NCBI GenBank assembly: GCA_965248535.1
Contig: CBDFJR010000005.1
Location: 2,144,001 to 2,208,000 of the forward strand
Direction: 5' to 3'
DNA from: Phormidesmis sp.
Lineage (GTDB): Bacteria > Cyanobacteriota > Cyanobacteriia > Leptolyngbyales > Leptolyngbyaceae
Length of the DNA: 64,000 bases
The notes under the pieces are model-generated. The model was not told where the DNA came from. It searched no databases and was given only the letters and a program-made list of their open reading frames with translations. Both the position numbers and the translations under genes were made by a program. Shown in pieces: positions 3-43,900 of this stretch. How positions within the stretch are numbered: position 1 is the first letter of the stretch; each line of letters begins with the position of its first letter.

Positions 3-404
3 CAAATTAGAATTTCTCGCACAGGGCTGGGCTGGATCTGTCGCAAGCGCAGCGGCCCCGATGAAGAAACCGCGAAAAGAATTGCTCAAGCTATTGGGAT
101 TGATATGACAAAAGTGGCGCGGCTGGTTTACGAAAACAAATTAGAGAATCTGGCTAACTTAGGCGGATTGCACTATCTCGCTAAACTCGAAAATGACCCC
201 GTGAAAAGACCGATTCCGATCGAGGATGCGATCGCGGGTCTAAATTCCGTTTTTCACGCTTTTCACTACGTCACCCGCAGCATTCCTGACGTAGAAAAGC
301 CGTCAGACTTTCAGATTTATAGACAATCATTTGAGGTTGTGAAAACTCAATTTCTTAAAAGCAAAAAAACTCTTAGACGACAAAAGATGCCAGATCTGAG
401 TTAA
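3..404 (+). CDS. XRE-family HTH protein, 5' end outside the window
   Basis: The frame of ORF 105..404 is open back to the window edge. It reads QIRISRTGLGWICRKRSGPDEETAKRIAQAIGID, which resembles an XRE helix-turn-helix. Confidence 0.6.
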   Translation, partial: QIRISRTGLGWICRKRSGPDEETAKRIAQAIGIDMTKVARLVYENKLENLANLGGLHYLAKLENDPVKRPIPIEDAIAGLNSVFHAFHYVTRSIPDVEKPSDFQIYRQSFEVVKTQFLKSKKTLRRQKMPDLS

Positions 405-37909: not shown

Positions 37910-39208
37910 GTGAAAAAAGTATTAGCAATCATTTTAGGCGGGGGAGCCGGAACTCGCCTCTACCCGTTAACCAAGCAGCGCGCAAAGCCTGCGGTTCCTC
38001 TCGCTGGCAAATATCGTCTGATTGATATCCCGGTTAGTAACTGTATTAATTCAGAAATCTTTAAAATTTACGTTCTGACTCAATTTAACTCTGCTTCTCT
38101 CAACCGACATCTCACAAGAGCCTATAACTTTTCATCTGGGTTTAACGACGGCTTTGTTGAAGTTTTAGCCGCCCAACAAACTCCCGAAAACCCCAACTGG
38201 TTTCAGGGCACTGCTGACGCGGTGCGGCAATATCTCTGGCTGCTGCAAGAATGGGATGTTGATGAATACATCATTCTCTCTGGCGATCACTTATATCGGA
38301 TGGATTATCGCCAGTTTGTGCAGCGTCACCGCGAGACCGGGGCTGATATCACTCTGTCAGTGGTGCCGATGGATGAGCGCCGGGCCTCTGATTTTGGCTT
38401 GATGAAAATCGACCAAGCAGGGCGAGTGATCGACTTCAGCGAAAAGCCCAAAGGCGATGCGCTCAAAGATATGCAGGTCGATACGACCGTTTTAGGGCTG
38501 ACGGCTGATCAGGCGAAAGAAAACCCCTACATTGCCTCTATGGGCATTTATGTTTTTAAGAAAGAGGCCTTGGTCAAACTGCTGCGGCAAGCGCCCGATC
38601 AGACCGATTTTGGTAAAGAAATTATTCCAGCTTCGGCCCTGACCCACAACGTTCAGGCTTTTTTGTTTAACGATTATTGGGCCGATATTGGAACGATCGA
38701 GGCCTTTTATGAGGCTAACTTGGCGCTGACTCAACAGCCCAACCCTCCCTTCAGCTTTTATGATGACAAAGCTCCGATCTATACTCGTCACCGTTTTCTG
38801 CCCCCCAGCAAATATTTTGACTGCAAAATCACCGAGTCGTTAATCGGCGAGGGCTGCATTCTCAAAGACTGCCGCATTAGCCATTCGGTTTTGGGCGTGC
38901 GATCGCGCATTGAGGGCGGAGCCACGATCGAAGACACGTTGATCATGGGGGCTGACTTCTATGAAGACTATGCCGAACGGCAATCAGAACTCGACTGTGA
39001 CAATGCTCAAGTTCCCTTGGGCATTGGCAAAGACTCGGTGATTCGACGGGCGATCATCGACAAAAACGCCCGCATTGGCTGCAACGTTCACATTGTCAAC
39101 AAAGATCGGGTCGAAGAAGCCAATCGAGAGAATCAAGGGTTCTACATTCGCAGTGGCATCGTCGTGGTGTTGAAAAATGCGACGATTCCCGATGGAATGG
39201 TGATTTAG
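37910..39208 (+). CDS. glgC: Glucose-1-phosphate adenylyltransferase (GTG start)
   Basis: [34 protein letters not shown] and SMGIY motifs. Confidence 0.97.
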
Positions 39209-39224
39209 AAACGATGACGGCTAT

Positions 39225-39272
39225 AAAAAATGAGAGATGAAGCAGATAGGTTGGTTTCACCTCCCATTTTTT
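39225..39272. terminator. Probable bidirectional terminator between glgC and aroF
   Basis: Imperfect hairpin aaaaaatgagagatgaagc...gtttcacctcccattttttt with A and T tails. Confidence 0.55.
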
Positions 39273-40128
39273 TAAGCGATCGCTAACTGGGGGCTTTGAG
39301 CCTCATAGACCTGACGACCGATCGCTTCGGCAACGGGCTTGAGACTGCGGACTAGACTCACCATGTCGTTGAGAGCTAACGCTTGACGGGCATCAGAAAC
39401 AGACTTTTCTGGCTCTGGGTGACACTCAATGATCAGACCGTCGGCACCACACGCGATCGCGCCACGAGATAGATCCGCGATCAGTTCTCGCTTTCCGGCG
39501 GCATGGCTGGGATCGACCATCACAGGTAAATGAGTGATTTGTTTGAGGGCGACGACGGCTCCTAAATCCAGCACGTTGCGAGTGTAGGGGTCAAAGCTGC
39601 GAATGCCTCGCTCGCACAGCACAACATTGGGGTTGCCGTGACTGACGATATATTCGGCGGCCATCACAAACTCCTCGATCGTCGCCGCCAACCCTCGCTT
39701 GAGCAAAATCGGCTTGTTGGCTTGTCCAACGGCTTTGAGCAGATCGAAGTTTTGCATATTGCGGCTGCCGATTTGCAGCATATCGGCATAGGCAGCGATT
39801 TCCTCGATCTGTGAAATGGCCATCACTTCAGTCACGACAGGCATCCCCGTAGCTGGTTGCGAACCTCTGCCAAGATTTCTAGCCCCTCGATGCCCATGCC
39901 CTGAAACGCATAGGGCGACGTGCGCGGCTTATAAACGCCACCTCGCAACGCTTGCACGGGCGCAAACTGAAGGTGACGGGCGACGGTTTCCATTTGCGTC
40001 AGGCTTTCGACGGTGCAGGGGCCGCCGATGACGACGATTTTTTGACCCCCGATCGCCACTCGCTCAGAGAGTTTAACGATCGTGTTCTGATTTGATTGAG
40101 ATTTAGCGACCAATTTTGCATCTTTCAT
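39272..40128 (-). CDS. aroF: DAHP synthase type I-beta, catalytic domain only; frameshift near 39845-39855 (error or pseudogene)
   Basis: ORF 40128-39832 (GGPCTVES, RGGVYKPRTSPYAFQG) plus ORF 39844-39272 (QIGSRNMQN, LKRG, CERG, DPSH, IECHP); AGGAG RBS at 40137-40141. Confidence 0.9.
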
Positions 40129-40148
40129 GACCTAGACTCCTAAATAAT

Positions 40149-40178
40149 AAAAAAGCCCGAAACCTTTGGGTTCCGGGC
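40149..40178 (-). terminator. Attenuator 2 intrinsic terminator
   Basis: RNA GCCCGGAACC-CAAA-GGUUUCGGGC-UUUUUU, immediately upstream of the aroF RBS. Confidence 0.9.
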
Positions 40179-40202
40179 CTGACGAACATTTGCACGACAG
40201 CT

Positions 40203-40265
40203 TCACCCAGAACTGGTTGGGATAAAAAAATAAAATCTAAATCGCCAGGAATTCAGGTGGAGCAT
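40203..40265 (-). CDS. Leader peptide 2, MLHLNSWRFRFYFFIPTSSG (Trp/Phe/Tyr-rich)
   Basis: 20-codon ORF with 6 aromatic codons in a run of 8; its 3' end is complementary to the left arm of the terminator. Confidence 0.8.
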   Translation of the reverse strand: MLHLNSWRFRFYFFIPTSSG

Positions 40266-40304
40266 CAGAGAAAAAACCGAATCAGGACATTTAATCAGGA
40301 CATT

Positions 40305-40332
40305 AAAAAACCGCAGAGGTTAGTCTGCGGTT
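40305..40332 (-). terminator. Attenuator 1 intrinsic terminator
   Basis: RNA AACCGCAGA-CUAACC-UCUGCGGUU-UUUU. Confidence 0.9.
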
Positions 40333-40359
40333 CACTGGGGCGCTCACAACGAACGACAT

Positions 40360-40413
40360 TCACCCCAAGTGAACCGCCTCGCGCCAAAAAAAGAAAAACG
40401 TGTTGTGAGACAT
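40360..40413 (-). CDS. Leader peptide 1, MSHNTFFFFWREAVHLG (Phe4-Trp)
   Basis: 17-codon ORF containing UUU UUC UUU UUU UGG; its 3' part pairs over about 16 bp with the terminator-proximal segment. Confidence 0.85.
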   Translation of the reverse strand: MSHNTFFFFWREAVHLG

Positions 40414-40445
40414 AAAAGGGTGCCGCTCGAAAACTGATTACTCTG

Positions 40446-40474
40446 AACTTAACAGAGGAACTCGATCGCGTCAA
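40446..40474 (-). promoter_or_regulatory. Sigma70-type promoter of the leader-aroF transcript
   Basis: TTGACG (40474-40469), 17-nt spacer, TAAGTT (40451-40446) preceded by TGn. Confidence 0.65.
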
Positions 40475-40525
40475 GTACCTTAGATGAGGTTTGAAAAGTA
40501 TCGAAAGTTTCTTCGCTTCGTTGCC

Positions 40526-40583
40526 GTCCCGCCCGTGACTGCAAGTCCGGGCTAACGGGGCGAAACCCGTTTCAACGGGTTGA
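40526..40583. repeat. Cluster of short palindromes, REP/MITE-like remnant
   Basis: gcccg..cgggc and aacccgtt-tc-aacgggtt hairpins next to the truncation point of a vapC fragment. Confidence 0.45.
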
Positions 40584-40585
40584 AT

Positions 40586-40669
40586 TCAACTGCTACTAGG
40601 GATGACGCTGGGATTCGGTTGTTTCGCTGCGCCTTCTGAAAGGATACGGGTGTCGAGCAGATATATCAT
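40586..40669 (-). pseudogene. Truncated VapC/PIN toxin, N-terminal ~23 codons
   Basis: MIYLLDTRILSEGAAKQPNPSVIP matches the PIN start pattern YLLDTxxLSE..K..PNP.V; ATGA overlap with the upstream gene. Confidence 0.75.
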
Positions 40670-40902
40670 AGATTGACGCGATCGGGAATGGGACTTTGAT
40701 CGCGGGTGAGGTCGAGTTCACCACTGGCAAGCGCTTCAGCGAGGGGAGAATCTTGTAGGAATTCGACAAGACTTTGGTGAGTAGGTTGGGGAGTTGAGGC
40801 TGGATTGGAGGCGGAGAGACTTTCGCTGAGGAGTTGAATGAGCCGCTGTTTTTCTGCGGGTTCAAGACCAAGGAGTTGTTGTTCTAATTCTTGGGTGAGC
40901 AT
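40666..40902 (-). CDS. Putative VapB-like antitoxin
   Basis: 78 aa with a SLVEFLQDSPL...ELDLTRDQSP tail, coupled to the PIN fragment. Confidence 0.7.
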   Translation of the reverse strand: MLTQELEQQLLGLEPAEKQRLIQLLSESLSASNPASTPQPTHQSLVEFLQDSPLAEALASGELDLTRDQSPIPDRVNL

Positions 40903-40946
40903 GGGCGACGGGAATACATATTCACTTTCAGTTTATCGCTTCTGCT

Positions 40947-43900
40947 TCATTTCCATTGATTGCATACGTCGCGCATGGCATCGACCATGCCTCGGATGGC
41001 GGCGGCTCCGCCGAGATGTGCGATCGGGGGATGCAGCGTGGCGAGGTCTTGCATAAGATCGGCGCGGGTGCAGTGGGCAAGGAGGTGAAGGTGGGATTGC
41101 CAGTCGGGATACGGGAGTGTAGCAAGAGAAAGGCGAGGAAGATAGGATCGGAGGGTTGTGGCGCGGGTGAGCTTGTGGATGATGGCATGGATGGCATCAA
41201 GGGCTTGGGGCAGAAACACTTCAGGTAGCTCTTCAGCTAACCCACACAACCCTTCTGCACGCGCTTGCTCATTTTGGAATAGCGACAATATTTCTAGAAG
41301 TGCGGGCAGTAATGCTTCAGGCAATTGCTTAGCTACACCACCATCGCAAAATATATCTCCAAATTCCACATACTTTCGCTCAGTCTGAATCAACAACCAT
41401 AGCGCCTCAAACGCTTCAGTTAAATAAGCTGGGTCAGTTTGAATTAGAGCATAGAGAAACTCTAAAACAGCACGTTTAAACTCATCTTGGACTAATCGCG
41501 CCAATTCTAACCCTTTAGTAAAATAAGTTGAATCAATTTGTGCTAGGGAATGCAATGCCCACGCACGCATGAATTCATCCTGAATTGATCGTGCAGCCGA
41601 TGACAACTGGGCAAGGTCAGCATTGCTAACCTTAGCTAGATCACGCAATGCAGGGGCACGGTCTGTGATTTTAGACCATGCAAAGGCTTGCTCATCCTCA
41701 ATAGACTCGCCGCACTTAATGCTTCTGCAAAATATGTTTCGTCAATTTCCGCTAAGTCAATCAATCTAAGTGTACGGTTGTAGTTGTTCTGTTGTGATCG
41801 AGCCACGCTTAAAGCTTCTGCAAAGCAGATTTCGTCAATTTGGGCTAGGAAAGTGCTTAATATTCCTGCACGATCGGACTCATCCTGAATTAATCGTGCA
41901 GTATTCAATGCTTCCATGGAGTACGTTCTGTCAATTCGAGCTAAGACGCTCAATGCTCTTGCACGATCGGACTTATCCTGAATTAACCGTGCAGCATCCA
42001 ATGCTTCTGCAAAATATGCTCTGTCGATTCGAGCTAAAATGCTCAATGCTCTTGCACGATCGAACTGCATCCGAATTGAGCGGGCAGCATCCGATGCTTC
42101 TGCAAGATATGCTCTGTCGATTCGGACTAGTTTGAAGAGTGCCCTTGCCTGCTTGTCCTCATCGTGAATTGAGAATGCCACGTCCAACAATCTAGCAATA
42201 TCAGCAGTGTTCACTTCGGCTAAGATACTCAGTATCTTCACTTTTCGCATATTCCAAGGCTCAATCAACCTCTCCTTCTCAATTGCAAGAAATGCCGCTA
42301 ATGCTTCTGCAAAATAAGCTGGGTCAATTTTGGCCAAGACACTCAACGCCACCGCGCTCTCATGTTTATTTCTAATTGTTCGTGCTGTTGTCAATGCCTC
42401 AGTAAAATGAGTCGAGTCAGTTTTAGCTAGAGCAGTTAATATCATCGCCCGCCAGTACTCATCTTGAAGAGATCTCGCTGTCTCTGCTGAAAGATAAGTA
42501 TGGTCAATCTCAGCTAAGGTATCCATCACTTCTGAATGAAAGAATGGATGTTGAATTGACCGTACAGCATCTAATGCTTCTTCAAAATATGCGTTATTGA
42601 TTTTAGCTAGCGTACACAATGCTGTTGCACGGGCGGACGCGTTTTGAACTGACCGTACAGCGTCTAATGCTTCTTCAAAATAGGAATTATCAATTTTGGC
42701 TAGATCACTCAATGCCGATGCTCTATGACATTCGTCCTGTATTGATCGTGAGACCTCTATGGTCTCTGGCAAGTAAACTGAGTCAATCTGAGCTAATTTG
42801 TTCAATGATCTTGCGCGATCTCTCACATCTCGAATTGACCGTGCCACCCTCACCGCTTCTAACAGGTAGGCTGAGTCAACCTGGGTTAAGGCAGTCAATG
42901 CCATTGCAATGTTACTCTCATTCCGCAGTGATCGCGTCTTCTTAACCGCAAACCCAAAGATCGCCTTAGGCAAATACGACGCAAGTTTCTCAATCGCCTC
43001 AACAATATTCTCCTCATCCTGCATTTGCTCTACATATGCCCAAGCTTGCTCTGGTGTCCAATACTTACGCTTCACAAACTCTGCCATCATCCCGATCGGT
43101 AGATTCCCCACCAAACTATTCAGCGTTGCTGTAATCAATGCATATCGACACTGCAACACAATCGAGCGAGTATTATCTTGCTCATAACTTTCCTCTGCAA
43201 TTTGCCACCCTCGCTTCACATCCTGTACAAAAATCGCAGGTTGCCCCAGTCGATCGCACGCCTCAAACCAAGCATTCCGCCCCTGCTCATCACTCATCGC
43301 CATCAGCACATGAATCTCATCCTCTCGCCCCGCCTGCTGGAGATGCCACGTCAAATGGCGATGAATATATCCATCATTCGGCAACCGATCCCAGCGATCG
43401 CACTTTTGGCGATAGCGATCCAAGAATTGAGCATGAGCATCCGCAAGCGTTCGGATTGGAGCGCTGAGGGTTGCTTGTTCGATCAATCCCCGCGCCGTAT
43501 CGTGCATCAAATCATGCACCCGATAGGTTAGCTCCCCTTCCAATGTCTCCGTCCCACTGGTCAGAAACGATCGATTCCGCAGAGCAATTAATGCCTTCTT
43601 CGCTTTCAAGGGCGACAACTCCCACAGTGTCACCGCCATCCGCACATCCAGACTCACATCCTCTGGCAACACTCCTAACCACGCAAACTGCCGTAACTGT
43701 TCCGCACTCAACCGCCGCAAACTCAAATTAAAACAAGCCCGCAAACTATACTTGCGCTGCTGATTCTCATCCAGACAATCCCAAGCCTCCGAAGAATCCA
43801 ATACCTCCAACGCTACTGATCGCCGCTCTGTCTCAAACTCCGATCGCAACTCCCCCCAACTCAACCCATCCCGCACCTGATTCGCCGCCAAATCTAACGC

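Follow-up and report, generated by a model that had tools for sequence, protein, structure and literature searches.

The window analysed here, the whole 64,000-nt stretch of Phormidesmis sp. DNA, carries on its minus strand a gene for a type I-beta DAHP synthase, and the DNA leading up to this gene holds a predicted promoter followed by two short open reading frames (ORFs) with aromatic codons, each with a terminator behind it (Table 1). Because a second aromatic leader and terminator follow terminator 1, attenuator 1 is the distal half of a tandem pair, attenuator 2 being proximal to the gene. Every coordinate and sequence given for attenuator 1 by an earlier reading of the letters alone (the sequence-only reading) proved exact on the minus strand.

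Table 1. Positions within the window of the promoter, the tandem attenuators and the regulated gene, listed in the order of transcription
Feature	Position	Strand	Description and basis
Promoter, -35 TTGACG	40474-40469	minus	sequence and conservation; whole promoter 40446..40474
Promoter, 17-nt spacer with 3' end TG	40454-40453 (TG)	minus	extended -10; sequence and conservation
Promoter, -10 TAAGTT	40451-40446	minus	sequence and conservation
Leader ORF 1	40360..40413	minus	17 codons and UGA; peptide MSHNTFFFFWREAVHLG, then stop
Leader start ATG	40413-40411	minus	first codon of ORF 1
Third pairing, 5' arm CUCACAAC	40402..40409	minus	codons 2-4; inverted repeat
Control codons UUU UUC UUU UUU UGG	40384..40398	minus	Phe6-Phe9 and Trp10
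Antiterminator, 5' arm	40361..40377	minus	last six codons of the leader, with the first two stop-codon bases
Leader stop UGA	40362-40360	minus	last codon of ORF 1
Antiterminator apical hairpin (CGUUC, loop GUUGU, GAGCG)	40341..40355	minus	weak; constrained folds
Third pairing, 3' arm GUUGUGAG	40343..40350	minus	adjoins antiterminator 3' arm; overlaps apical hairpin
Antiterminator, 3' arm	40327..40342	minus	pairs with 40377-40361
Intrinsic terminator 1	40303..40333	minus	10-bp stem, 6-nt loop, U-tract; terminator scan
Leader ORF 2	40203..40265	minus	second, proximal attenuator; peptide MLHLNSWRFRFYFFIPTSSG, then stop; aromatic; conserved in relatives
Terminator 2	40153..40180	minus	12-bp stem, then T-run
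Regulated gene, type I-beta DAHP synthase	39272..40128	minus	catalytic core only; domain matches

Aligned to the PRK08673 profile (338 positions), the regulated gene begins at about position 67, and neither an N-terminal ferredoxin-like domain nor a chorismate-mutase domain is present in the enzyme. The genome contains two further DAHP synthases, one (L032) with the N-terminal ferredoxin-like domain PF18152 and one of the AroF/G/H type. Since the regulated isozyme lacks the regulatory domain carried by its paralogue, control at the level of expression would be physiologically sensible. A 2-nt insertion at 39851-39852 divides the gene between two frames in this assembly. Both halves are matched by PF00793 and TIGR01361, and a domain model for Bacillus-type DAHP synthases is among the matches of the gene. 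The two extra bases are absent from the seven orthologues compared and from every contig covering 39851-39852 in two public runs, each of which yielded one contig variant otherwise identical to the window. The insertion could be a genuine loss-of-function mutation or else an error of assembly; because the downstream gene is frameshifted in this assembly, the switch may here control a broken gene.

The promoter was assigned by conservation, as a consensus promoter scan of the sequence called 0 sites: the arrangement TTGACN-16..18-TAnnnT is kept in 42 of 46 related loci, 41 of which also have the TG. The predicted -10 ends 32 nt before the leader ATG, placing the probable transcription start site near 40439, in keeping with the start site that the sequence-only reading had predicted about 26 nt 5' of the leader. 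Upstream of this promoter, a perfect hairpin (AACCCGUU, loop, AACGGGUU) lies at 40565-40589, after an ORF at 40666-40902 of which it is perhaps the terminator; the same hairpin was the source of one chance-level Rfam pseudoknot match.

The Phe4-Trp pattern of leader 1, TTYTTYTTYTTYTGG, occurs once in the 64-kb window, compared to 0.02 occurrences expected from shuffles. Relatives carry runs of Tyr, Phe and Trp codons at the equivalent position, and Phe4-Trp is, by comparison with these runs, a genus-specific and derived form of them. The window sequence contains no Shine-Dalgarno-like motif 5' of leader ORF 1, so that the earlier statement to this effect withstood a motif check, and such a motif precedes 1 of the 46 related leaders. 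Because the motif is lacking, we infer translation of the leader from conservation of the ORF only; ribosome-polymerase coupling and the response to amino-acid supply are likewise presumed in the mechanism described below.

An inverted-repeat search of 40296-40445 returned exactly three repeats, corresponding to the antiterminator, the terminator and a third pairing that had been proposed as a protector. The antiterminator comprises 16 bp, with an ungapped 14-nt core (40377-40364 with 40340-40327) that is extended to the full arms by way of one bulged U. The last six bases of its 3' arm, 40332-40327, are shared with terminator 1, where they make up the bottom of the 5' arm; the arms of terminator 1 appear in the inverted-repeat search as 40332-40324 with 40317-40309 and in the terminator scan as a hairpin at 40333-40308 with a T-run. 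Duplex energies of -29.0 and -15.0 kcal/mol were obtained for the antiterminator and terminator, respectively, with predicted hairpin energies of -28.3 and -14.4 kcal/mol. The whole 141-nt region folds no better than its shuffles (z -0.87). The claim that the antiterminator overlaps the leader stop codon and sequesters the terminator base is borne out by the pairing and by covariation of both helices, as presented below.

Between the stop codon and the antiterminator 3' arm, a hairpin of at least 4 bp can form in 32 of 36 distinct relatives; its sequence is variable, and its mean energy is -3.8 kcal/mol, compared to -1.4 in shuffles. The version in this genus has an energy of -1.6 kcal/mol (p 0.43). 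In the relatives, this apical hairpin could act as a stabiliser of the antiterminator or as a pause signal. Directly 3' of terminator 1, the minus strand has two copies of AATGTCCTGATT with a 13-nt period (40280-40304), each containing a start-Ser-stop mini-ORF, ATG TCC TGA. An AATG motif after the U-tract is seen in many relatives, and one of them (L021) has a duplicated unit resembling the AATGTCCTGATT repeat of the window.

The second attenuator region (40140-40300, minus strand) folds better than its shuffles, with a z of -3.2. The last codons of leader 2, GUUCUGGG, can pair with CCCGGAAC, which is the 5' arm of terminator 2. A covariance model of attenuator 1 did not match attenuator 2 in this genome at E<=1; in three other genomes the model matched attenuator 2 weakly (25-26 bits, E 0.002-0.003), and this cross-match hints at a common origin of the two attenuators.

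Conservation of attenuator 1 was assessed by searching 60 relatives with the C-terminal half of the enzyme and comparing the DNA upstream of the 29 orthologue loci. Counting the window's own locus, both aromatic leaders were present in 29 of 30 loci with the orthologous gene, the exception (L015) having just 229 nt of upstream sequence to inspect. A hairpin and T-run follow leader 1 in all 29 loci, 27 of them identified by a strict script and two being imperfect, with a bulge or a long loop. Across 46 related loci, leader 1, the antiterminator and the terminator were found upstream of an orthologous core-only DAHP synthase gene in every case.

Both helices are supported by covariation. In a MAFFT alignment of 29 attenuator-1 sequences (A1), 91.5% of 377 antiterminator cells are paired and changes on both sides occur in 7 of 13 pairs (27 cells); the observed value was reached by 0 of 500 shuffles on four measures and by 17 of 500 on a fifth. 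For the terminator, 99.6% of 261 cells are paired, with changes on both sides in 4 of 9 pairs (17 cells), and its further pair types were not above shuffles (276/500). Sliding the partner columns by 1-3 positions reduced pairing to only 32-65% for both helices. The bases common to the two helices (A1 columns 81-84) covary with the antiterminator partner and with the terminator partner, as expected for mutually exclusive helices. A model-fitted alignment (A2) of 46 attenuator-1 sequences and 3 weak attenuator-2 rows, which is biased towards the modelled antiterminator and has the outer terminator pairs outside the model, gave 92.1% pairing for the antiterminator with both-side changes in 10 of 13 pairs (67 cells), and 98.6% for the terminator with both-side changes in 5 of 9 pairs (24 cells).

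The geometry of the leader is conserved as well. In each of the 46 related loci, an ORF opens with ATG, contains an aromatic run and ends in a stop codon at a constant position. Its length is 15-20 codons in 45 of these; at the 46th (L003), where the script picked an ATG inside the frame, the complete ORF comprises 17 codons. The stop codon adjoins the antiterminator arm in 41 of the 46 loci. The first aromatic codon is situated 20-26 nt upstream of this arm in 43, and the last one starts 5-11 nt upstream of it in 41. Within the aromatic run, composition is kept while order varies and codons are exchanged for synonymous ones; the N-terminus of the leader is variable. Between the promoter and the antiterminator, no conserved feature other than the ORF was found in the related loci.

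The covariance model built from A1 gave one match in this genome, at 104 bits. In an even sample of the phylum it matched 21 of 151 genomes, once each and always upstream of a DAHP synthase orthologue, and no match was found in this 151-genome sample outside the window's own class. An exact-pattern scan of a public genome collection matched at least 119 stretches. Among the 80 of these with flanks, an aromatic leader ending at the expected UGA was seen in 78, a second aromatic leader downstream in 68, and, inside the 400-nt flank, the beginning of a DAHP synthase gene in 62. Judging by record titles, the carriers among the matches listed include many Nostocales, Leptolyngbyaceae and Oscillatoriales, together with a Gloeobacterales metagenome-assembled genome (MAG) and MAGs of Obscuribacterales and Melainabacteria. 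Carriers that can be cultured are Nostoc, Calothrix, Phormidesmis and Stenomitos. Two further records, L134 (titled Bryobacterales, a 2.44-Mb contig) and L080 (titled Proteobacteria), have the complete tandem device and the DAHP synthase gene, reflecting either mislabelling or transfer outside the phylum. At locus L055 (genome G107), the leader and antiterminator are kept and the terminator 3' arm and U-tract look degraded; the model score of this locus is 49 bits, compared to 75-105 bits in the others.

Combined, these results make it very probable that attenuator 1 is a ribosome-mediated (leader-peptide) transcription attenuator, the distal of two in tandem, which controls a DAHP synthase isozyme. 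According to the proposed mechanism, transcription would start about 26 nt before the 17-codon leader, which has no Shine-Dalgarno motif. When charged Phe-tRNA is scarce, the ribosome would stall at Phe6-Phe9, which lie 14-23 nt 5' of the six final leader codons; these freed codons would then pair with 40342-40327 to form the long antiterminator, which would take the base of the terminator stem and let RNA polymerase continue into attenuator 2 and on to the gene. With aromatic aminoacyl-tRNAs in good supply, the ribosome would reach the UGA and cover the 5' arm of the antiterminator, so that the terminator would form and transcription would end near 40305.

Folds of this sequence constrained by a 27-nt ribosome mask are largely consistent with this mechanism. 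With the A site on any of Phe6 to Phe9, the optimum is the full antiterminator with the small apical hairpin and no terminator; once the stop codon occupies the A site, the mask covers the antiterminator arm and the full terminator forms. The proposals that a ribosome at the Phe codons would free the antiterminator and that one at the stop codon would block it are thus both borne out in the model by covariation, conserved geometry and constrained folds. With the A site on Trp10, the base of the antiterminator is masked and an 8-bp terminator stays, making Trp sensing in this leader doubtful; given a standard footprint, the Trp codon is too near the antiterminator for full relief of termination.

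Equilibrium folds of the 46 relatives followed the same pattern in part. The complete antiterminator state was optimal in 27 of 46 when the A site was placed on the first aromatic codon and in 2 of 46 when it was placed on the last; with the stop codon in the A site, the terminator state was optimal in 36 of 46. As free RNAs, 30 of 46 favoured the antiterminator and 8 of 46 the terminator. Equilibrium folds of full-length RNAs are a rough proxy and a poor model of a kinetic decision, and because the real choice is kinetic, these counts show the feasibility of the model only.

The sequence-only reading had contained a third structure, in which CUCACAAC pairs with GUUGUGAG in untranslated RNA and blocks the antiterminator, making termination the default. 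The 8-bp helix exists, with a duplex energy of -9.9 kcal/mol. All six genomes of the genus have it, unchanged in five and with a one-sided C-to-U change that yields a G.U pair in the sixth; two records named Phormidesmis priestleyi keep it as well. However, leaders of the genus are nearly identical throughout, so that this conservation says little, no compensatory change in the helix was seen within the genus, and when the 150-nt region was shuffled by mononucleotide, a perfect 8-nt inverted repeat arose by chance 340 times in 5000 (6.8%). For this genus, AUG-proximal/post-stop pairing does exceed shuffles (p 0.007-0.027; window p 0.01), but the signal is absent outside it: pairing of the leader 5' part with post-stop bases reached p<=0.055 in 3 of 23 loci outside the genus, and AUG-proximal/post-stop pairing reached p<=0.05 in 12 of 143 distinct loci, 7 of them from this genus. 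Over the same 143 loci, the pairing of these segments had a median p of 0.52 and a mean energy of -6.4, compared to -6.2 in shuffles. A classical protector, in which the upstream region pairs with the antiterminator 5' arm, was found at p<=0.05 in 0 of 46 loci, the natural pairing being weaker than in shuffles (-6.6 vs -7.8), and no conserved pause or protector hairpin was found across the related loci.

The energies of this sequence likewise do not favour a protecting role for the third pairing. The free-RNA optimum, at -38.9 kcal/mol, consists of the terminator with a 5'-UTR/post-stop pairing, the best antiterminator state lies at -38.6 kcal/mol, and forcing the third pairing gives -35.3 kcal/mol, 3.6 above the optimum. 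Of the six genomes in the genus, three nonetheless have the terminator state as their free-RNA optimum, compared to 8 of 46 in the whole set. The third helix and the antiterminator do not compete base for base, which counts against the three-structure model; together they would make an H-type pseudoknot in which 40343 and 40342 are joined without a loop, and hence should exclude each other. A topologically equivalent helix is found in the unrelated clade of L098, L111 and L050-L054, where the start-codon region (AUGUUCGC or AUGUUUAC) is complementary to the 8 bases immediately preceding the antiterminator 3' arm (GCGAACAU or GUGAACAU), with one compensatory difference between the versions. Overall, the part of the claim that stands is a genus-specific 8-bp candidate for a region 1:2-type anti-antiterminator; a conserved counterpart in the family was not found, and default termination through this helix is considered unlikely. 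A region 1:2 anti-antiterminator is not essential to the leader-peptide attenuator class, and the conserved design suggested by the sequence comparisons is one of two hairpins, without a classical region-1 protector.

Two further explanations were considered. TRAP or T-box systems control aromatic pathways in other bacteria, and a trans-acting factor (RNA-binding protein, uncharged tRNA or small ligand) could set the switch here, the short ORF being incidental; the leader's translation, as noted, is presumed and its Shine-Dalgarno motif is missing. An incidental ORF is hard to reconcile with an ATG, aromatic run and stop codon that keep their position in all 46 loci, with the leaders in 78 of the 80 flanked stretches, with a run that is kept as composition and not as nucleotide sequence, or with the ORF being the sole conserved feature between promoter and antiterminator. 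Additionally, an Rfam covariance scan of 39000-41500 at E<=10 gave six chance-level matches and no leader, T-box or riboswitch family. Trans-acting control is therefore judged highly improbable. The lack of an Rfam leader family match also means that the element is not a member of those families (Phe_leader, Trp_leader and similar ones). Even fainter is the chance that the ORF encodes a functional hydrophobic micro-peptide, or exerts control over translation of the gene downstream only, with the hairpins forming the ordinary terminator of an upstream transcript. The C-terminal residues A/E-V-H-L-E/G of the peptide are indeed conserved, but their codons are the antiterminator arm and covary with its RNA partner, whereas the N-terminus is variable and the element has its own conserved promoter; the gene start, 231 nt further on and behind the second leader and terminator, is too far away for translational coupling.

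Ribosome-mediated attenuation is thus the preferred reading, and on comparative sequence evidence the element is a real, conserved attenuator of known mechanism in a phylum for which no described case was found. A 2016 comparative study states, in the portion of PMC4833913 used here, that there were no reliable data on attenuation in cyanobacteria. No report of leader-peptide attenuation in cyanobacteria was found in a literature search mostly outside subscription journals, and no demonstration of transcription-translation coupling in cyanobacteria was found in the literature consulted for this analysis. The attenuator would offer a concrete, testable case that ribosomes of cyanobacteria keep close enough behind RNA polymerase to govern whether it terminates. 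An attenuator before the gene for the first step of the shikimate pathway would explain end-product control of an isozyme without an allosteric domain. It would also give cyanobacterial engineering a compact native part responsive to aromatic amino acids, and would mark a control point to be deleted in strains meant to overproduce aromatic compounds.

A broader evolutionary scenario is rather improbable and is offered as speculation: that the tandem pair is ancient and undescribed, extending from Gloeobacterales and the non-photosynthetic Obscuribacterales and Melainabacteria MAGs to Nostocales, with a two-hairpin ancestor and a three-state derivative. If true, and if the element works as proposed, coupling of transcription to translation would serve gene control across the phylum. 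The ancestral two-hairpin switch would read through in the absence of translation, and a new start-codon helix, acquired by this genus and, independently, by one other clade, would have converted it to a three-state switch whose untranslated state is termination.

Attenuation by leader peptides is textbook knowledge for Proteobacteria and Actinobacteria, and the trpL and pheL leaders of Escherichia coli follow a 1:2/2:3/3:4 pairing scheme. The features of the class found at this locus are a short ORF with end-product codons upstream of a biosynthetic gene, a terminator between leader and gene, an antiterminator mutually exclusive with that terminator, and the spacing of stall and stop positions, for which the equilibrium folds of the family give partial agreement (27/46 and 36/46). 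As the trpL and pheL (pheA leader) attenuators are described in the portion of PMC11802643 drawn on here, they have in common with attenuator 1 a short leader ORF with tandem cognate codons, and a terminator 5' arm that alternatively pairs upstream, the ribosome position deciding between the two. Attenuator 1 differs from them in having no conserved region-1 protector or pause hairpin, and in using the last six codons of the leader, with the stop, as the antiterminator arm. Its codons form a mixed Tyr/Phe/Trp run in most lineages and Phe4-Trp here, its target is a DAHP synthase, and two different attenuators are placed in series.

Two systems from other bacteria act, or are predicted to act, on the same enzyme. 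The uORFC-13-1 motif upstream of aroF in Acholeplasma (Brewer et al. 2021, PMC8632094) resembles attenuator 1, as far as the cited portion describes it, in being a predicted uORF with Phe codons beside an intrinsic terminator and upstream of a DAHP synthase gene. Compared by description, this motif is restricted to Acholeplasma and environmental sequences, and it has a ribosome-binding site and a U run encoding at least one Phe, with no tandem arrangement described in that portion. The aroR-aroF attenuator of Corynebacterium glutamicum (Neshat et al. 2014), as summarised in the cited part of PMC11802643, likewise places a leader peptide with Phe and Tyr codons upstream of a DAHP synthase operon, and stalling under Phe limitation enhances read-through. 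By that summary, it belongs to another phylum and is a single attenuator, and its run is Phe-Tyr-Phe, whereas the cyanobacterial leader has 5-6 aromatic codons including Trp.
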